The notes under the pieces are model-generated. The model saw only the letters and a program-made list of their open reading frames with translations, did not search any database and was not told the DNA's origin. A DNA stretch of 62,582 nt, filler included. It is 7 parts of 7 records of this genome, joined end to end, with 100 filler letters (N's around TTAATTAATTAA, not from the genome) between each part and the next. Parts side by side here need not be neighbours in the genome. Positions count along the whole stretch, not along the records: positions 1 to 6,494 come from SRR31156797_11613; 6 more parts are not named here. One strand, 5' to 3'. Position 1 is the stretch's first letter. Every line of letters starts with the position of its first letter. This document shows, in pieces, positions 1 to 56,375 of this stretch. The translations under genes and the position numbers were made by a program.

Positions 1-343
1 TGCCTGCCGCGCTAGCGGCTTCGTCCAACTTTTGTTTTTGTTAGAATAGGGAAGGATGGAGAATATGTTTATTTGTTGTAGAAAGAGAGACAGAAATTTC
101 CAAGTCCTATGGAGGATGATTCACGCCGCGTAAAATTGTTTCGTATCTTCATTTTCTGATGGATATTAAAAAAATTCTTGAATCTCTGAATCCATACATA
201 CTATTATCTCTCCGTCCGAAAAAATTATGTTGCTGAAATCCGTATAAAATAACCTCAACAGAGGCTGAAAATGGATATCAACCATCACAACCCTATATTC
301 TTGAATCAGGATATGGGGTTTTTTGTTTTATCCGGAGGGTGAT

Positions 344-616
344 TTGTCAAAGGAAGTGGATACCACGGCCATATTAGAACACATCGCGACATTGGAAGAC
401 GCCAATGAACGCCTGGTCAAAAATCTTCTGGAACACATTTCGACCTTGGAAGGCGTAAACGATCGGTTGGTAACGACCCTGAGATTCTGCATCAAGCTCC
501 TGACGGAATTCAAGGCCCAGGTCCCCAACCCCGAGCAGTGGCAAGAGATGTTGAACGTATTCGAATTAACCTTGCATGAGGCAGAGACGGCCCGTGAAAG
601 GAAGACGTTTCATTGA
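344..616 (+). CDS. Hypothetical coiled-coil protein with an 18-aa internal tandem duplication
   Basis: GGAGG at 334-338 precedes an in-frame TTG at 344. The translation repeats ILEHIATLEDANERLVKN / LLEHISTLEGVNDRLVTT. Confidence 0.6.
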   Translation: MSKEVDTTAILEHIATLEDANERLVKNLLEHISTLEGVNDRLVTTLRFCIKLLTEFKAQVPNPEQWQEMLNVFELTLHEAETARERKTFH

Positions 617-760
617 GGATGGGGCTTCTATGGAAACCAATTGCCAAACGCTCATTTCTCAGGGTCGCCCTGTTGTCGGTATTCCTTTCCGGAGTGGGTT
701 GTTTCGTTTTTCAAGTCCAAAATCGTTCACTGTAAACGGACACCTGGAAGCCAATTTTTC

Positions 761-781
761 TTGACAAAATGGTTTTTGTCA
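761..781 (+). promoter_or_regulatory. -35 TTGACA overlapped by a palindromic operator TGACAAAA-N4-TTTTGTCA
   Basis: Perfect 8-bp dyad at 762-781. The downstream AGGAGG plus ATG at 844 opens only an 11-codon ORF, consistent with a decayed gene. Confidence 0.4.
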
Positions 782-1338
782 TTACTTTTAACTGAATGTA
801 GGTATCCCTGCCAACCATCCAACCTCTATTCAGGAGGTTCCCTATGAAAAACATCAAAATGTATATGCCTTGCTCCTAATAGGTATAGTTCGCCTGTTGG
901 GAGCTCAAATTTTCTTCTATACAAAGCCAAATCCATCGTGAGATGAGGACGAAAAACCACGGGTATTGTTCCCTTTGACCCTCAGAGATTAAACCATGGA
1001 AAATCCTAACGCATTGTTTGTTCTGTTGACAATGACATGCTGGGGTTCCTAACCACGAACTTATACAGAACCTGACCCAGTAACACACAGAAGGAGATGT
1101 ATTATGTAGGGTAAAGTTTGATTGTATTTAATCGTGGGATCTTGGGTAGTTTTTGCCTACTGTAACTCACGCGGAGGATGCGGTTATATTTGAAAATTAT
1201 CAAGCATTTTCTATTGAATCATTCAATGTAATCAGCACCAACGCTTTTTCTGTTTAATTACCCTCTGTAAATAAAGGATTTCTGGAATTCTCTAACTCCC
1301 TCATACCTGGTTAAATTGCGGTCCGCCATTGAAGTAAT

Positions 1339-1630
1339 AAGTTATGCGGCATACCAAGAAAAAAGAAAGGAGGAGAGCCATGTTAGAAAACGTTAATTAC
1401 AATCTCATAGAGACTATCACGATAATATCAAGAAGTCTTTACCGGTATGACACATATATGAAGGACGCATCTCAATGCCCGTCTTGCGAAAATATTTGGC
1501 AAAAATTAAAGGAGGATCGCGAAAAAGAATTGTTGATGCTCCTCAAGGAATTAAAAGTCCACATCGATCTAGGCGAATTAATTTTAGAATAAATCAAGAT
1601 TCACCAGAAGTTGCGTATGCCGCATAACTT
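1339..1630. repeat. Perfect 16-bp inverted repeats flanking a small gene
   Basis: AAGTTATGCGGCATAC (1339-1354) and its reverse complement GTATGCCGCATAACTT (1615-1630). Confidence 0.8.
1380..1592 (+). CDS. Small helical protein with CxxC (possibly ferritin-like half-bundle)
   Basis: Strong AAGGAGG RBS before ATG 1380; 70 aa, NYNLIETITIISRSLYRYDTYMKDASQCPSCENIW. Confidence 0.7.
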   Translation: MLENVNYNLIETITIISRSLYRYDTYMKDASQCPSCENIWQKLKEDREKELLMLLKELKVHIDLGELILE

Positions 1631-1684
1631 CAAAGATTGCATACGGAAGACAAAACTCCCACTTTTAAAAGTAACGACAACTGC

Positions 1685-1822
1685 TATTATGTTGTGAGTT
1701 GGCTTAACCCGCCGAAAGTAATGACGAATTCGGATCGTCCTTTGGATATCCCAATTTCGATTTCAAATCAATGGGTTGCCTGAATTCTTGATTGCTCTCA
1801 AGAAAAATCTCACAACATAATA
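1685..1822. repeat. Perfect 14-bp inverted repeats
   Basis: TATTATGTTGTGAG (1685-1698) and CTCACAACATAATA (1809-1822). Confidence 0.7.
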
Positions 1823-2071
1823 ATGCCCCCCCGGAAACACCCCTCCTTGATGTGAAGCGGTCGAAGATTTTTTTAAACATTTTGATTCTCCGACGAAAAA
1901 ATAGTTGAAAATCAAATTGTTCAGAGAATTGAAGATTGATACGAAAAAGGATTGTTTAGAAATGTCAAAATATAATAAAATTCTCCCAAAGGAAAATTCT
2001 ATTTTATCTGGTGGGAATTATCGACTGAAGGTGGCTATCTTTAGTGGATTTATGAAAAACGCAGCAGGAAT

Positions 2072-2143
2072 AAAAAAGGTTCACCTTTCTGATGAAAGAT
2101 GAACCCTCTTTATGTTTATATTAGGGTAATAAAAATTTGTCAA
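2072..2143 (-). promoter_or_regulatory. Sigma70-like promoter immediately followed by a terminator-like hairpin and U-tract
   Basis: Minus strand: TTGACA (2143-2138), 17 bp, TATAAA (2120-2115), then GGTTCATCTTTC-ATCA-GAAAGGTGAACC-T6 (2105-2072). Confidence 0.5.
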
Positions 2144-2187
2144 TAAGTTTTTACGGTAGATGTTTTAATAAAAATAAATGAGCTTGC

Positions 2188-2268
2188 TTGGGCACATCTC
2201 CGTTTATTGATATCAGCCTCTCAAGAAAGTAATAATAGCGCCCAAGCCACTGTGCCCAAATTGTGCCC
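2188..2268. repeat. TGTGCCC repeats resembling integrase arm-type sites
   Basis: Direct copies at 2251-2257 and 2262-2268 and an inverted TTGGGCACA at 2188-2196, near the AT-rich to GC-richer transition. Confidence 0.35.
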
Positions 2269-2417
2269 GTCAAGGTCAAAAAATACAAACATTTCCAAAC
2301 AAAACCAAAAGTAAAAAATAAAATTCAATCTTACAATATGTTAAAATTATTGAAAATTTCTATTTTGGACTGATATCCCCTGGGCCTCTCTTTTTGATTT
2401 GCCGGGCTTTCGGATTT

Positions 2418-2936
2418 CTAAATTTCCACTTCCGAAGCCATTTTCCAATCTTTTTTGGCTAGGGCCGTCCAAAAATCCGTTTTATCGTCTTTCCAGCCCT
2501 CGCCAAACCGTTCATCGTAGTACTCGCCGACCCGTTCCATCCATGTGTTCCAGTAGTTCTGTTTTTCCCGGACCGCCAGCAGAACGTCGTTTAGATAAAC
2601 GGCGATATCCGTCATTTTTTCCTTGGGAATGAAGTAGGCCGCTCCCATCTTGTAGCTCTTGATGGTGTTTTCAGGCGTCAGCGCATGGGCTGTCAGCATA
2701 ACGGCCAATATCCCTTTTCCATACGCCATATCCAGAAGGGCGAAGCCATCCACCCCCATAATATCCAGAACCGCCATATCAAAGGGCCGGCTTTGAATCA
2801 ACTCTTTTGCTTCCTTGAAGGAACCGGCGCGCGTCAATTGACACATCCCCAAAAATTCTTCCAACGTATCCAGGACATCCGGCTCATCGTCTACAATGAG
2901 TATGGTTTTACCGTCCAGCAGGTTTTTTTCCGTCAT
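2418..2936 (-). CDS. Response regulator receiver-domain protein with a short C-terminal extension
   Basis: ILIVDDE...AVLDIMG...MLTAHA...FIPK receiver motifs. GGAGG RBS before ATG 2936. No HTH or ANTAR domain recognised. Confidence 0.85.
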   Translation of the reverse strand: MTEKNLLDGKTILIVDDEPDVLDTLEEFLGMCQLTRAGSFKEAKELIQSRPFDMAVLDIMGVDGFALLDMAYGKGILAVMLTAHALTPENTIKSYKMGAAYFIPKEKMTDIAVYLNDVLLAVREKQNYWNTWMERVGEYYDERFGEGWKDDKTDFWTALAKKDWKMASEVEI

Positions 2937-2977
2937 ATCAACCTCCCCATATGAATATCTTTTGTGGTTGCCGGCCT

Positions 2978-4186
2978 TCAGTAAATCGAATAATCGTAGT
3001 AACCGTTGGCAATACGGTACTTGGAGATCTGCTGACCGCCCAGCCATATCTGGGTGATCTTGGAATCCCTGAGATATTTTTCCAGGTGGTATTCGGGAGA
3101 AAGGCCGTTGGATCCCATGAGTTCAACGGCTTTGTTGGCAATCCACACACAGCTGTCGGCGGCATAGGAGCGAACAATGCTGGCTTTGGCAACCATCTCC
3201 TTGGTAAATGGAGGACCGTATACTTCGGGATGCTCCATCATATAGGCATAGTTGTACACGGCGCCGCGGGTCATTTCCAGTCGAACGGCCATGTCCGCCA
3301 GAATGCCGGCCACCAGGCTCCATTGCCGGACCGGTTTTCCGCCGCTTTCCCTCCCTTGGGTATAGTCCAGGATGATCTCAAATACGGCCCGGGCAATCCC
3401 TAGTGAAATAACCGATGAATGCCATTGGGTTCCGGCCATGGTGGCGTAATAAAAATGGGCATCGGGGCCCGGACCCGCCAACCGATATTCCTTGGGTACG
3501 CGCACGTTGTCATAGAAAATGCTGGCATTGACGGAGGTTTTGAATCCCATTTTGTCTTCGGGTTTCCCGAAACTGAGTCCCGGCGTATCGCTCGGCACAA
3601 AGATGAGCGCGATGCCGTCCTCACCCTGCTCATAATCGGTGTTGCATACGGTAAAATAGACACTTGCAATACCGGCGTGGGTGGGCCACGATTTGCTGCC
3701 GTTGATGACCCATTCGTCTCCATCCAGCACCGCTCTTGTTTTAATGCCCCTCCCTTTTAACAAAGGATTTTCCGTGTCCGCGCCGCCGGTGGAATCGGTC
3801 ATGGAGAGGCAGGCATAATTGATCTTGTCGCCGCAAAAGGGAGGGATGAACTTGTCCAGGACCGCCTTATTGTCGGCTACCATGGCCGCCTGAAGCACAA
3901 ATCCCGCATTGATGCCGCAACTGACGCTGATGCCGGCGTCTCCTCGGGCCAGCTCTTCACAGACGATTCCCAGGGTGGTGGGCGAACCGGGTCCGGTTCC
4001 GCCATATTCAGGGGGATATCCGGCCTTTTGAATGCCCAGGTCCACCAGTTTCTGGAAAACGGATTCAACCAGCTTCGGATCTTTTTCCAGTTCCCGTCGT
4101 ATGGGCATGATTTCGTTGTCCACAAACTTCCGCATCATATCGCGAATTGCATTCTGTTCTTCCGTAAAAGTGTCTTTTCGCAGCAT
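2978..4186 (-). CDS. Acyl-CoA dehydrogenase
   Basis: EELARGD, INGSKSWPT, KPEDKMG, AVELMGSNG and EKYLRDSKITQIW motifs. GGAGGT RBS before ATG 4186; the longer ORF start lies inside the leader terminator. Confidence 0.92.
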   Translation of the reverse strand: MLRKDTFTEEQNAIRDMMRKFVDNEIMPIRRELEKDPKLVESVFQKLVDLGIQKAGYPPEYGGTGPGSPTTLGIVCEELARGDAGISVSCGINAGFVLQAAMVADNKAVLDKFIPPFCGDKINYACLSMTDSTGGADTENPLLKGRGIKTRAVLDGDEWVINGSKSWPTHAGIASVYFTVCNTDYEQGEDGIALIFVPSDTPGLSFGKPEDKMGFKTSVNASIFYDNVRVPKEYRLAGPGPDAHFYYATMAGTQWHSSVISLGIARAVFEIILDYTQGRESGGKPVRQWSLVAGILADMAVRLEMTRGAVYNYAYMMEHPEVYGPPFTKEMVAKASIVRSYAADSCVWIANKAVELMGSNGLSPEYHLEKYLRDSKITQIWLGGQQISKYRIANGYYDYSIY

Positions 4187-4203
4187 GCCGACCTCCTGTC
4201 TCG

Positions 4204-4270
4204 AAAAAAAGCCCCTTTTCCCCATCGGAGAAAAGAGGCCCCATTACCTCATGAGTCCGTCGTCAGACTC
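4204..4270 (-). promoter_or_regulatory. ANTAR-type dual-hairpin antiterminator / intrinsic terminator (copy 1)
   Basis: P1 GAGTCT-GACGAC-GGACTC and P2 GAGGT-AATGGG-GCCTC. P2's 3' arm begins the terminator GCCTCTTTTCTCC-GAT-GGGGAAAAGGGGC-T7. Confidence 0.8.
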
Positions 4271-4293
4271 CCATTGTCATGTCAAAAATGTTT

Positions 4294-4605
4294 TCAGCCG
4301 CCGAAAACCTCTTCCCCCATGAGAATATGGAAATCGGCCACCTTGGGAACCCATTCCTGCAGAAACTGCTGAAATCCTTCGGATTGGGTGTCTTTCATCC
4401 AGGCCTCCTGGCTGGTTGTGTCTACGATCCCAACGTATTTATAGGGGATTTCCCCTTTCTTGGATGCGGTGATTTTCACCAGGGTGAATTTCTTGCAGGA
4501 AGGGAGTCCATCCAGGAAGGGCCCTTTCTTCTCTTCGCAGTATTGCTTGTATTCTTCATCGGTCACGCTCTCTTTCAGATTGTACAAAATGATTTCCTTG
4601 GCCAT
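4294..4605 (-). CDS. EthD / REDY-like (HapK-type) dimeric alpha-beta barrel protein
   Basis: 103 aa starting MAKEIILYNLKESVTDEEY; AAGGAGG RBS before ATG 4605. Family assignment is by eye. Confidence 0.65.
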   Translation of the reverse strand: MAKEIILYNLKESVTDEEYKQYCEEKKGPFLDGLPSCKKFTLVKITASKKGEIPYKYVGIVDTTSQEAWMKDTQSEGFQQFLQEWVPKVADFHILMGEEVFGG

Positions 4606-4649
4606 TTTCTCCTCCTTTGTTGGTTCCCTGGTTTCATGGGGATGGGCAC

Positions 4650-4720
4650 AAAAAAAGCCCCCACTTCCCAAATCGGGAAATGGAGGCTTCATTACCTCAT
4701 GAGTCCGCCATTAGACTCAT
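4650..4720 (-). promoter_or_regulatory. ANTAR-type dual-hairpin antiterminator / intrinsic terminator (copy 2)
   Basis: P1 GAGTCT-AATGGC-GGACTC, P2 GAGGT-AATGAA-GCCTC, terminator GCCTCCATTTCCC-GATTT-GGGAAGTGGGGGC-T7. Upstream TTGACA at 4768-4763. Confidence 0.88.
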
Positions 4721-4876
4721 TATTCACTTTTACATTAAACCTTTATTAAAAGCAGTGTTGGTTGTCAAGAAAAAATTTTGTTGTGGGTTCGGAAACCTTG
4801 TTTGAGCGAGTTAAAACAGGGCCGTGGACGACATGTTCGGAAAAATAACCCGGTTCATCCGGCAATTGATTTTTCC

Positions 4877-4905
4877 TTGACATGGGAAAAGCAAACAATT
4901 ATACA
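4877..4905 (+). promoter_or_regulatory. Sigma70-like promoter for the aldehyde dehydrogenase leader
   Basis: TTGACA (4877-4882), 17 bp, TATACA (4900-4905). Confidence 0.65.
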
Positions 4906-4919
4906 AAAAAGAAAACAAT

Positions 4920-4987
4920 ACGTAAGGATGCGTTTTGGAGGTAATGGAGCCTCCTTTGCCGGAAATGGGCAAAGGGGGCTTTTTTTT
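4920..4987 (+). promoter_or_regulatory. ANTAR-type dual-hairpin antiterminator / intrinsic terminator (copy 3)
   Basis: P1 ACGT-AAGGAT-GCGT, P2 GGAGGT-AATGGA-GCCTCC, terminator GCCTCCTTTGCC-GGAAATG-GGCAAAGGGGGC-T8. Confidence 0.88.
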
Positions 4988-5079
4988 ATGGACGGCAAAC
5001 CGGGGTAACGGCTTAAGCCGGGATGGTGTAACTATCCGGTATTTATCTAAAATTATACATTCATTAAAGGGGGTAGGTA

Positions 5080-6494
5080 ATGGCAAAACATTCCATGTAC
5101 ATTAATGGCGAGTGGGTGGATTCAGTTTCCGGAGAGACCTTTCAGGATCTGAACCCTGCTGACGGCACATTGTTCGCCGAAGTGCCCAAGGCAAATTTGG
5201 AGGATGCGGATCGGGCGCTGGAAGCGGCTTTTAACGCAAGATCCCTTTGGGCCGATACGGATCCCGGCGACAGGGCCCGTGTGTTGTATAAAGCGTCGGC
5301 CCTGTTGCTGGAACGTCAAAAGGAGATCGCCAATGTGTTGATCAATGAGAGCGGCGCCATGTTCGGAAAAGCCATGTTTGAAACCGGTTATGTGGCTGAT
5401 CTGCTGCACACCGCCGGTGAAGACTGCCGAAGGATCCTGGGCGAGACCTTTCCATCGTCCCACGGCAAGATCGGCATGACCCTCTATCGTCCACTGGGTA
5501 CGGTGGTGGCCATTTCGCCATGGAATTTTCCGCTGCTGTTGTCCTGCAATAAAGTAGCTTATGCATTGGCAGCGGGCAACACGGTGATTCTGAAACCGGC
5601 CAGTGAAACCCCGGTTGTGGGAATGAAAATCGCCGAACTGTTCGAAGCCGCCGGGTTGCCGGCAGGCGTTCTCAACGTCATCACGGGACCGGGTGGCCTG
5701 TTGGGGGACAAACTCATCGAAGATCCGCGTTCATCCTTGATTTCTTTCACGGGTGAAACCCTCACGGGCCGGAAAATCGGTGCAAAAGCCGGGGAAAACC
5801 TGAAGAAATTCACCCTTGAACTGGGCGGTAAAGATCCCATGATCATTTTGGGCGACGCGGATGTGGACTATGCCGTAAACGCCGCCGCCTTCGGCGCCTT
5901 CATGCATCAGGGCCAGATCTGTATGTCGGTGGAGCGGATTATCGTGGCCGAATCCATTGTGGAGGAATTTGCGGCCAAGCTGGCTGAAAAAGCCAAGACG
6001 CTTACCGTGGGCGATCCGACGCAGCCCACGACCATCATCGGCCCCTTGATCAATGACGCGCAGGTCCAGACGGTCCATGCGCACGTTCAGGAGGCGGCTG
6101 CCAAAGGTGCCTCCATTTTGTCGGGCGGCAAATATGATGGGCGCTTCTATGAGCCAACGGTCCTTTCCGGCGTCACCCGGGATATGCGCATATTCAAGGA
6201 GGAGACCTTTGGACCGGTGGCCCCCGTCATTGCCGTTAAGGATGAGAAGGAAGCGCTGGAGGTGGCCAACGACACCGAGTACGGCCTTTCCTCCGGAGTC
6301 ATCACCAATGACCTTCAGAAAGCGCTGTTTCTGGCGGAAAACCTGGAATCCGGCATGGTGCACATCAACGATTCCAGCCTGTACGATGATCCCTACTGTC
6401 CTTTCGGGGGTTGCAAGAACAGCGGAATCGGACGGGAAGGGGGACGTCGTTCCATGGAGGAGATGAGCGAGTTGAAGTGGGTCACCATCCATAA
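5080..6494 (+). CDS. Aldehyde dehydrogenase, benzaldehyde/vanillin-dehydrogenase-like (last codons cut by contig end)
   Basis: ISPWNFP, LKPASETP, FTGE, LELGGKDP (catalytic Glu), FMHQGQICMS (catalytic Cys) and EETFGPV motifs. Confidence 0.93.
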
Positions 6495-6594
6495 NNNNNN
6501 NNNNNNNNNNNNNNNNNNNNNNNNNNNNNNNNNNNNNNTTAATTAATTAANNNNNNNNNNNNNNNNNNNNNNNNNNNNNNNNNNNNNNNNNNNN
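6495..6594. other. Artificial contig linker
   Basis: N-run with a central TTAATTAATTAA (stops in all frames). Confidence 0.99.
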
Positions 6595-8143
6595 CATCAT
6601 CGACCAGTGCGTGGCCCAGGGCATTCCTTTTGCCAGGGACTACGGGGGACTGCTGGCCAATCGCTCCTTCGGCGGCGCCCAGGTATCCCGTACCTTTTAC
6701 GCCCGGGGTCAGACCGGCCAGCAACTGCTTCTGGGGGCTTACAGTGCTATGATGCGTCAAGTCGCCGCCGGCAAAGTGGAGATGTTCCCACGGCGCGAAA
6801 TGTTGGATGTCGTATTGGTAAACGGACACGCCAAAGGCGTCGTGGTCCGCAACATGATCGACGGGAAGATAGAACGCCACAGTGCAGATGCGGTTGTCAT
6901 GTGTACGGGCGGCTACGGCAATGTCTTCTTTCTTTCTACAAACGCGATGGCTTCCAACGTAACAGCAGCCTATCGGGCCTATAAGAAAGGTGCTTTATTT
7001 GCCAATCCCTGTTTTACCCAAATCCACCCCACCTGCATCCCGGTTCACGGCAGTTTCCAGAGCAAGCTGACGCTGATGAGCGAAAGTTTGCGCAACGACG
7101 GTCGCGTGTGGGTACCGAAAAATCCGGGCGAAACGCGAAAAGCAAACCAAATACCCGAGTCTGAAAGGGATTATTACCTGGAGAACAAGTACCCCAGCTT
7201 CGGCAACCTGGTTCCAAGGGACGTCGCATCAAGAAACGCCAAAGAGCAATGCGATCAGGGCAAAGGCGTGGGTGAAACCGGTCAGGCCGTTTACCTCGAT
7301 TTTGCCGATGCCATTCAACGGGACGGCAAGGATGTCATTGAAAAGAAATACGGCAACCTGTTTCAGATGTATGAAAAAATCACGGCGGACGATCCGTATC
7401 AAACCCCGATGATGATCTACCCGGCCATTCACTACACCATGGGCGGCCTGTGGGTGGATTACAACCTCATGAGCAACATTCCGGGTCTCTTTGTACTGGG
7501 CGAAGCCAACTTCTCCGACCACGGCGCCAACCGATTGGGAGCCAGCGCCCTCATGCAGGGTCTGGCGGACGGTTACTTCGTACTTCCCTATACCATCGGC
7601 GGCTACCTGACCGGCACAGAAAAAGCGGACGTCACGACCAACCATAAAGCGTTTGACGAATCGGAGAACCAGGTCACCGGTCGCATCGACAAACTGATGT
7701 CCATCGACGGGAAGAGGACCGTGGACGATTTCCACAAAACGCTCGGACGCATTATGTGGGAATACTGCGGCATGGCCAGGACCAACGAAGGGCTGGAGAT
7801 GGCCCGAAAGATGATCCAGGAATTGAGGGCCGAGTTCTGGGAAAATGTCCGCGTGCCGGGGGCCAAGGGCGATTTCAATCAAAGCCTGGAGCGCGCCGGA
7901 CGAGTGGCCGACTTCCTTGAATTCGGAGAACTCATGGTCATCGACGCCCTTGCACGTCAAGAATCGTGCGGCGGCCATTTCAATGAACGCTTTGAAACCG
8001 AAGAGCATGAAGCCCTCAGAGATGATGACAACTTCTGCCATGTCGCGGCATGGGAACACAAAGGGGACGGCCAGGAACCGGGTTTTCACAAAGAGCCCCT
8101 TGAATTTGAAAATGTTAAACTTACGCAAAGGAGCTACAAGTGA
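6595..8143 (+). CDS. sdhA: Succinate dehydrogenase/fumarate reductase flavoprotein subunit (5' partial)
   Basis: [32 protein letters not shown] and [11 protein letters not shown] motifs. Confidence 0.95.
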
Positions 8144-16558: not shown

Positions 16559-16658
16559 NNNNNNNNNNNNNNNNNNNNNNNNNNNNNNNNNNNNNNNNNN
16601 NNTTAATTAATTAANNNNNNNNNNNNNNNNNNNNNNNNNNNNNNNNNNNNNNNNNNNN
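16559..16658. other. Artificial contig linker
   Basis: N-run with TTAATTAATTAA. Confidence 0.99.
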
Positions 16659-28247: not shown

Positions 28248-28347
28248 NNNNNNNNNNNNNNNNNNNNNNNNNNNNNNNNNNNNNNNNNNNNTTAATTAAT
28301 TAANNNNNNNNNNNNNNNNNNNNNNNNNNNNNNNNNNNNNNNNNNNN
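28248..28347. other. Artificial contig linker
   Basis: N-run with TTAATTAATTAA. Confidence 0.99.
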
Positions 28348-37778: not shown

Positions 37779-37878
37779 NNNNNNNNNNNNNNNNNNNNNN
37801 NNNNNNNNNNNNNNNNNNNNNNTTAATTAATTAANNNNNNNNNNNNNNNNNNNNNNNNNNNNNNNNNNNNNNNNNNNN
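37779..37878. other. Artificial contig linker
   Basis: N-run with TTAATTAATTAA. Confidence 0.99.
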
Positions 37879-45974: not shown

Positions 45975-46074
45975 NNNNNNNNNNNNNNNNNNNNNNNNNN
46001 NNNNNNNNNNNNNNNNNNTTAATTAATTAANNNNNNNNNNNNNNNNNNNNNNNNNNNNNNNNNNNNNNNNNNNN
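45975..46074. other. Artificial contig linker
   Basis: N-run with TTAATTAATTAA. Confidence 0.99.
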
Positions 46075-56275: not shown

Positions 56276-56375
56276 NNNNNNNNNNNNNNNNNNNNNNNNN
56301 NNNNNNNNNNNNNNNNNNNTTAATTAATTAANNNNNNNNNNNNNNNNNNNNNNNNNNNNNNNNNNNNNNNNNNNN
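56276..56375. other. Artificial contig linker
   Basis: N-run with TTAATTAATTAA. Confidence 0.99.

Follow-up and report, generated by a model that had tools for sequence, protein, structure and literature searches.

What holds back, and what releases, transcription through the three short leaders that punctuate a divergent gene cluster in the 62,582-nucleotide stretch of DNA analysed here (hereafter, the window)? The leaders, called W1 (4204..4270, minus strand), W2 (4650..4720, minus strand) and W3 (4920..4987, plus strand), precede genes for an acyl-CoA dehydrogenase (ACAD), a protein of the dimeric alpha/beta-barrel (DABB) fold and an aldehyde dehydrogenase (ALDH), respectively, and all three lie on the first contig piece of the window (1-6494, 6.5 kb). 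Most known cases of ANTAR antitermination belong to pathways linked to nitrogen (eut, nas, ami and nif). The answer suggested by this work is that W1, W2 and W3 are very probably transcription attenuators of the ANTAR type, i.e., members of this known attenuator class, a reading that draws its support from the comparison of relatives and not from the window itself.

Architecture and folding of the leaders

All three leaders are built alike, with a hairpin (P1) followed by a second one (P2, GAGGU-AAUGRR-GCCUC) and by a GC-rich terminator stem of 12-13 bp with a U7-8 tract, and in 3/3 of them the 5′ arm of the terminator begins with the 3′ arm of P2. W1, located by sequence, folding and rule scan as an internal attenuator between the DABB and ACAD genes, has its P1 (GAGUCU-GACGAC-GGACUC, loop GACGAC) at 4270-4253, its P2 (GAGGU-AAUGGG-GCCUC, loop AAUGGG) at 4250-4235, its terminator at 4239-4211 (with the 5′ arm starting at G4239) and its U7 at 4210-4204, all on the minus strand. 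On the same strand, W2, located before the DABB-fold gene by sequence, folding, terminator scan and rule scan, has an 8 bp P1 (AUGAGUCU-AAUGGC-GGACUCAU) at 4720-4699, P2 (GAGGU-AAUGAA-GCCUC, loop AAUGAA) at 4698-4683, the terminator at 4687-4657 and U7 at 4656-4650. W3, located before the ALDH gene by the same four approaches, runs along the plus strand, with P1 (ACGU-AAGGAU-GCGU, 4 bp including one G-U) at 4920-4933, P2 (GGAGGU-AAUGGA-GCCUCC, loop AAUGGA) at 4937-4954, the terminator at 4949-4979 and U8 at 4980-4987. The P1/P2 stems thus measure 6/5, 8/5 and 4/6 bp in W1, W2 and W3, and their linkers 2, 0 and 3 nt. The original prediction, made from the sequence alone, had described this common architecture, with A1 in five of the six loops and G4 in all six, and both descriptions hold, the first on sequence reading and folding, the second on sequence reading.

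Folded at full length, W1, W2 and W3 form P1 and the terminator (-31.6, -41.5 and -32.7 kcal/mol; z-scores of -3.8, -7.2 and -5.6, respectively), whereas the same leaders ending before the 3′ arm of the terminator form P1 and P2, with the P2 hexaloop present in 3/3 and the P1 of W2 also showing its hexaloop. P2 and the terminator do, therefore, share an arm in every one of the three leaders, as had been proposed. The 12-mer GGTAATGRRGCC has exactly three copies in 62.6 kb, one per leader site, and four matches with up to one mismatch against 0.77 expected. Under a dual-site rule that asks for a P1 of at least 4 bp with an [A/G]NNGNN hexaloop, a linker of no more than 15 nt, a P2 of at least 4 bp with an ANNGNN hexaloop, and an overlapping hairpin of -12 kcal/mol or lower followed by T5, exactly W1, W2 and W3 emerge from both strands of the window, and not a single dual site from 40 block shuffles. 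The terminator scan found W2 and W3 outright; at W1 it reported just the P2 hairpin.

This is the layout that defines ANTAR substrates in the parts of Ramesh 2012 (PMC3369931) drawn on here, namely two paired hairpins, each stem having 3 bp or more, with a linker of variable length between them, A1/G4 hexaloops and a P2 overlapping the terminator; the sites described in those parts belong mostly to nitrogen genes. According to the sections of Walshe 2022 (PMC8934654) used here, the ANTAR dimer contacts one hexaloop at a time, P1 being the recruitment and P2 the antitermination hairpin. Applied to the window, the default state, which folding shows, would be P1 together with a strong intrinsic terminator that stops transcription before the gene. 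In the induced state, a phosphorylated REC-ANTAR response regulator, presumably encoded elsewhere in the source genome, would bind the A1/G4 hexaloops of both hairpins, P1 serving for its recruitment and P2 as the antiterminator, and P2, by sequestering the 5′ arm of the terminator, would let the polymerase read through. W2 would open a unit made of the leader, the DABB gene, W1, the ACAD gene and a receiver-domain gene, in which W1 would act as a second, internal checkpoint, while W3 would open the divergent ALDH unit.

Several observations weigh against assigning the leaders to the ANTAR class. The P1 loop of W1 has G1 rather than A1, and the minimum-energy P1 of both W1 and W3 has one extra pair and a 4-nt loop, so that the hexaloop is possible and not preferred. 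A scan of the whole window at Rfam gathering scores gave no match, and a permissive Rfam 15 scan of 4100-5100 gave only sub-threshold matches at chance level, the best of them being PyrR, at 30 bits against the 54 needed. None of the 57 window open reading frames (ORFs) scanned, a selection made by eye among the 111 with 100 aa or more (the other 54 were judged to be overlapping shadows), carries an ANTAR domain, and the only regulator gene on the contig encodes a 172-aa receiver protein devoid of it. In the relatives compared below, the conservation of the P2 core and of A1 and G4 in its loop is partly due to the construction of the search patterns. As to the PyrR element itself, it was rejected as a candidate, its 30-bit match reflecting the generic shape of a hairpin plus terminator.

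Regulators and sensor kinases beside related leaders

A scan of the species-genome collection with the P2 pattern gave at least 120 loci, and 115 of the 120 listed are chance matches; closer relatives may for that reason have been missed. At the remaining five (L004, L008, L015, L080 and L018), P2 is accompanied by a terminator and a T run. L004 is in genome G003, L008, L015 and L080 are in G001 (Desulfobacula sp.), and L018 is in G002 (uncultured Desulfobacula); all three genomes encode ANTAR proteins. Counting two further genomes of the family of G003 (G367 and G368), the REC-ANTAR gene or its operon adjoins a leader in 5/5 reference genomes with true copies. In G003 a FIST kinase gene is followed by REC-ANTAR, the leader, ALDH, ACAD and a Liv-type binding protein, in that order, with 110 nt between the end of the REC-ANTAR gene and the leader. 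G367 and G368, in which the leader precedes an ALDH gene, have a single ANTAR gene each, and its end is about 100-120 nt upstream of the leader. In G001 the REC-ANTAR gene is divergent from, and 140 nt away from, a leader preceding an aldehyde:ferredoxin oxidoreductase (AOR) gene, and leaders with two and three hexaloops precede ACAD operons near a FIST-GAF kinase gene. In G002 an operon of FIST-GAF kinase and REC-ANTAR genes is divergent from a leader before ThiS-like, AOR and PaaK-like CoA ligase genes.

The metagenomes, searched with a stricter pattern, yielded 24 loci, amounting to 20 distinct matches, of which 15 are true leaders, three are chance and two are undecided. A REC-ANTAR gene directly precedes the leader in 7/15 of the true ones, and a FIST-type kinase gene lies upstream of it in all six loci that reach that far (L151 ends at the regulator gene). 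Among the distinct matches, L136, L147 and L152 were discarded as chance for being located in coding sequence, whilst L137 and L140, whose hairpin is weak (-14 kcal/mol) and follows a YdjM gene, counted as undecided and were excluded from the alignment.

The regulators themselves (from L004, L080, L143, L146, L148, L149, L151, L153, L159 and L175) score 72-82 bits for ANTAR, where the cut-off is 27.3, and combine a receiver with a C-terminal ANTAR domain, both over Pfam cut-offs, which makes them REC-ANTAR proteins. Aligned over its full length, the regulator of L143 matches Rv1626 at E 4.5e-54 and EutV at E 3.2e-38, and it keeps 7/7 of the EutV residues taken as RNA contacts (R142, K143, K147, K149, E160, Y164 and M172), by our own count in an alignment with an inferred two-residue numbering offset, the residues being those named in the sections used of Walshe 2022 (PMC8934654). 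Its partner in the relatives is a FIST-GAF-HisKA_2 histidine kinase, the gene of which is usually upstream of that of REC-ANTAR. This adjacency in 5/5 genomes and at 7/15 metagenome leaders, together with an architecture that agrees with the definition of Ramesh 2012 (PMC3369931) as far as it was available, sustains the initial claim that the leaders are ANTAR substrates.

The receiver protein of the window, encoded at 2418..2936 on the minus strand, gives rise to another explanation, in which the leaders are attenuators under a different factor, be it another RNA-binding protein (e.g., this neighbouring receiver protein), a small RNA or a ligand. The protein has 172 aa, with a conserved C-terminal tail of about 45 aa, matches Pfam Response_reg only and shows no ANTAR domain even at Pfam E values up to 10. 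Its gene, the sole regulator gene on the contig, is probably the last of the ACAD operon, the FIST kinase of L008 carries a fused module of this family, and the stem of P2 varies unusually little in sequence for an ANTAR site, all of which would fit a factor other than an ANTAR protein. The family is, however, a large one, with 20 paralogues in G001, 11 in G002 and eight in G003 at E <= 1e-5 (among the 39 matches listed, about 22 are at E <= 1e-30, with some 7-13 close ones per genome), and none of these 8-20 matches per genome was found in the leader-controlled operons of the relatives, where it is REC-ANTAR genes that adjoin the leaders. The 169-aa protein encoded at the same place in L008, tried as a counterpart, turned out to be unrelated on comparison. 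As for a ligand, leaders of about 65 nt have neither the length nor the complexity of the known ligand-binding riboswitch classes, and no Rfam family matched them. We therefore consider control by a different factor unlikely. The fused module is a family match, 45% identical, at G001:C63:32947-33405; it lies inside an open frame of 1142 aa, on the same contig as the L008 leader, and we take this frame to be the FIST-GAF kinase of L008 and the match to be its C-terminal module. The receiver protein of the window may itself serve the ANTAR system as a phosphorelay partner or as a phosphate sink.

True copies of the leader are narrowly spread, being found in 2/161 genomes of the family of G001, 3/70 of the family of G003 and 1/151 of an order-wide sample. 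Model R1, with which W1 scores 63.2 bits (R1 itself having been built partly from W1), had a strong match in G001 alone over the 151 order genomes, the six weak ones, at 30-36 bits, being taken for plain terminators; over 151 genomes of the family of G001 it matched in G001 and G002 only. A search of the 151 order genomes with the L143 regulator protein, scoring 22 candidates per genome, gave two matches at E <= 1e-30, and at the second of them (L161) no leader follows the gene. The P1 sequence of W2 has 13 matches with up to two mismatches in 401 order genomes; 10/10 of those inspected are in unrelated contexts, and a control pattern matched about as often.

How does such a system compare with those already described? 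In the accounts of EutV/EutW of Enterococcus faecalis available here, as in the relatives, a REC-ANTAR protein is paired with a histidine kinase, several attenuators, including internal ones, serve one gene cluster, A1/G4 hexaloops sit on P1 and P2, and the 3′ arm of P2 is common to the terminator; the seven presumed RNA contacts of EutV recur, by our own count, in the related regulator. The sensor of the relatives, on the other hand, is a cytoplasmic-looking FIST-GAF-HisKA_2 kinase and not EutW; the targets are ALDH or AOR, ACAD, DABB and short-chain dehydrogenase genes, Liv-type ABC transporters and a PaaK-like ligase instead of eut genes; the P2 stem hardly varies in sequence, and many related leaders have no P1. 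Among solved structures, the nearest homologue of the related regulator is Rv1626 (PdtaR; E 4.5e-54), which, with the ANTAR-target RNAs of mycobacteria and other actinobacteria, is linked to lipid and redox genes rather than to nitrogen genes in the portions of the literature covered. The actinobacterial sites, according to the same portions, mostly overlap ribosome-binding sites and act on translation, unlike the ones presented here, which overlap intrinsic terminators. With the nitrogen-linked regulons (NasR, AmiR, and the sites predicted in Pelobacter and Desulfotomaculum), as far as the descriptions at hand go, the system has in common the antitermination logic and the presence of several operons per regulon, and it differs from them in that no nitrogen-assimilation gene was seen among the targets.

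Variation among related leaders and the place of P1

In the terminator helix of 26 related leaders, 98.5% of the cells are paired and 8/13 pairs have changed on both sides; none of 500 shuffles was as good, and slid controls had 51-71% paired. The terminator stems, described in the original prediction as differing in sequence yet keeping their pairing in the window, show compensatory changes among the relatives. The core of P2 is invariant among the relatives, but the search pattern fixes it, and the two outer pairs left free covary weakly. When loop position 3 was left open, true leaders appeared in G002 with the P2 loops AACGAA and AAAGAC, where A1 and G4 are kept and no AUG is present; a P1 example in the same genome is UUUUCC-AAAGAC-GGAAAA. 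Position 3 is accordingly U, C, A or G in the relatives, whilst A1 and G4 stay, both being partly fixed by the pattern in the case of P2. In L139, the closest relative found, which has the same divergent pair of leaders as the window, the P1 of W2 is identical and that of W3 reads ACGU-AACGAU-GCGU (stem kept, loop AACGAU), so the loops did not prove lax in orthologous leaders, which had been named as grounds for abandoning the ANTAR idea.

The loops of G002 bear on the possibility that the leaders work by leader-peptide attenuation, with the GGAGG of the 5′ arm of P2 as a ribosome-binding site (RBS) and initiation at the AUG of the P2 loop, the translation of a short peptide choosing between P2 and the terminator. 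P2 is indeed GAGGUAAUG in 3/3 window leaders, and ORF callers begin frames at the loop AUG. The spacing from GGAGG to AUG is, however, only 3 nt, the frames starting there vary in length and content, the G002 leaders have no AUG to start from, and the same A1/G4 loops on the P1 hairpins would be left unexplained. Leader-peptide attenuation is, in our opinion, extremely unlikely.

P1 is much less regular than P2. An upstream A1/G4 hexaloop hairpin of at least 4 bp is present in 8/28 leaders, against a mean of 2.0 and a maximum of six in shuffles, and around two thirds of the related leaders have no canonical P1. With G1 variants included, P1 is found in 10/20 leaders away from the regulator gene, and a conserved P1 in 0/10 of those directly after it (L004, L143, L146, L148, L149, L151, L153, L159, L196 and L197); these counts are not independent, several leaders being near-duplicates, and the P1 status of L196 and L197 was judged by eye. 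L143 has one P1 candidate, which is absent from its orthologue L146. In the regulator-adjacent leaders, TTGACA is, by eye, so near P2 that the transcript would hardly have room for a P1. Several of these leaders have instead, 4-10 nt before P2, a small hairpin whose loop is 3-4 nt long (e.g., AGAAU-CAA-AUUCU).

Such irregularity might be expected if these were ordinary terminators, or a repeated intergenic element, with incidental upstream hairpins and no switching. In support of this, in addition to the missing P1, W1 follows a gene, and many of the related copies are located directly after the regulator gene, where a terminator is expected. W2 and W3, however, lie in a divergent promoter region, in sense with their genes, which a constitutive terminator would silence; the 11 nt on the 5′ side of the terminator, which make P2 complete, are conserved between genomes while the terminator stems change; and the element goes with a single regulator family and a single set of target genes. 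Terminators without any switching are therefore very unlikely as an explanation.

Returning to ANTAR attenuation, it is tempting to speculate that in the FIST-kinase/ANTAR systems of Desulfobacterota a single conserved hexaloop hairpin (GGAGGU-AAUGRR-GCCUCC) could suffice for antitermination, with P1 optional and FIST sensing an aldehyde- or amino-acid-derived carbon source, although we regard this as tentative and rather doubtful. If true, these would be natural single-hexaloop ANTAR antiterminators, a case that Walshe et al. 2022 (PMC8934654) leave open, in the sections used here, as regards how far single-hexaloop sites are used. The related leaders with and without P1 make, in any case, a natural series for testing whether P1 is required.

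Where transcription of the leaders starts can be suggested for W3, with a putative sigma-70-type promoter recognised by eye at 4877..4905 on the plus strand (TTGACA, 17 nt, TATACA), which we propose with reserve; most related leaders likewise have a TTGACA about as far away. Upstream of W2, a TTGACA hexamer at 4763..4768 on the minus strand might be a -35 element, and no convincing -10 is seen next to it. W1 has no plausible promoter of its own, its TTGACA sitting just 15 nt upstream of P1, and a strict consensus promoter scan of 4100-5100 detected none. Just upstream of W1, a weak terminator-like hairpin (8 bp with three G-C, then AUUUUU) at window 4290-4308 on the minus strand overlaps the end of the gene of the 103-aa DABB protein.

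Target genes and the locus in the window

Over all loci, the genes that follow the leaders encode ALDH; AOR with a ThiS-like protein; ACAD; homologues of the 103-aa protein; short-chain dehydrogenases; Liv-type ABC transporters; saccharopine-dehydrogenase-like proteins with a TRAP transporter; M14 carboxypeptidases; a class-I fumarate-hydratase-like protein; a PaaK-like ligase; and a corrinoid protein with an MtaA-like methyltransferase. The window genes have their counterparts here, its ALDH being 71% identical to the leader-controlled ALDH downstream of the REC-ANTAR gene in L004, its ACAD 61% identical to the leader-controlled ACAD of L008, and its 103-aa protein 46-57% identical to homologues under leader control in L015, L148 and L151, which speaks for the proposed membership of all three in an ANTAR regulon. 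Judging from the target genes of the relatives, the regulon probably oxidises an aldehyde to its acid and then processes the acyl-CoA, the aldehyde coming probably from imported amino acids or related compounds; the target set would fit the uptake of amino-acid-type substrates, aldehyde oxidation, CoA activation and dehydrogenation. Canonical dual-hexaloop leaders also precede M14 zinc carboxypeptidase genes at L150:1208-1257 (minus strand) and L157:655-706 (plus strand), and these targets hint that peptide-derived amino acids feed the regulon. At L008:8033-9846 (G001) the leader-controlled ACAD operon continues with a B12-binding protein and a URO-D/MtaA-like methyltransferase, which suggests a methyl-transfer or demethylation step in this branch of the regulon.

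The ANTAR switch, then, appears to run a carbon-catabolic regulon in sulfate-reducer relatives, composed of ALDH or tungsten-type AOR, ACAD and Liv-type uptake. To our knowledge the ligands of FIST domains are largely unidentified, and the coupling of a FIST kinase to this regulator makes the regulon a starting point for what the FIST domain senses. A term search of the seven supplementary files of Ramesh 2012 (PMC3369931) found no aldehyde dehydrogenase or acyl-CoA dehydrogenase target; the targets in the covered parts of a 2025 review (PMC12591593) and of Mehta 2021 (PMC8164766) are nitrogen, ethanolamine and mycobacterial lipid/redox genes; and literature searches on ANTAR with FIST, ALDH antitermination, Desulfobacula/Desulfobacterota, AOR or ACAD gave, judging from their results, nothing on this system. 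The suspicion that the combination had not been described stands to that extent, and it has to be tempered in that ANTAR control of lipid and redox genes is known in mycobacteria, according to the portions of the literature at hand. What we could not find described in the literature searched is the regulon (ALDH/AOR, ACAD and DABB) and the FIST sensor kinase; the type of switch itself is known.

The ALDH gene (5080..6494, plus strand; Pfam Aldedh, E 1e-168) is truncated at the end of the contig piece. Its product reaches no NCBIfam equivalog cut-off, the best model being lactaldehyde dehydrogenase (452 bits vs 650), with StyD at 373 vs 850, and the ‘aromatic-type’ label given to it in the original prediction is not supported. 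The 402-aa ACAD, encoded at 2978..4186 on the minus strand, has the N, M and C domains of Pfam Acyl-CoA_dh, and its top NCBIfam matches, acryloyl-CoA reductase and cyclohexane-1-carbonyl-CoA dehydrogenase, are far under cut-off. With ALDH, ACAD, AOR and CoA ligase all under the NCBIfam cut-offs, no specific function can be assigned to any of them. The 103-aa protein (4294..4605, minus strand) is assigned by its fold model (pLDDT 82) to the dimeric alpha/beta-barrel, with an HapK/EthD-like fold and TM of 0.78-0.88 to At3g17210, olivetolic acid cyclase, HapK and EthD. It scores 22.2 bits against Pfam HapK, under the cut-off of 25, has no Pfam EthD match, and belongs by sequence to neither family. 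Its earlier description as EthD-like is consequently valid at the level of the fold, where EthD structures are among many matches, and not at that of the sequence.

The window as a whole comprises about seven contigs chained by N44-TTAATTAATTAA-N44 spacers, at 6495-6594, 16559-16658, 28248-28347, 37779-37878, 45975-46074 and 56276-56375. Genes are truncated at the joints, as seen for ALDH at 6494 and for a fumarate-reductase-type flavoprotein at 6611 (which begins at profile position 96), and gene neighbourhood across the spacers is for this reason meaningless. Window 1-2400 has a G+C of 38.7%, against 52% for 2401-6494, and its largest ORF does not exceed 97 aa; it has no Rfam match at gathering score.

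A few arrangements deserve mention on their own. At L015:5949-6051, three hexaloop hairpins stand ahead of one terminator; at L141:7263-7444, two full attenuators are in tandem ahead of an ALDH gene; and at L018:5999-6048 and 7691-7745, the second attenuator sits between two ALDH genes. In the window, the RBS/start region of the ALDH gene (5066-5085) is GGUAGGUAAUGGC, a near match to the 5′ half of P2, GGAGGUAAUGGA, possibly by coincidence.

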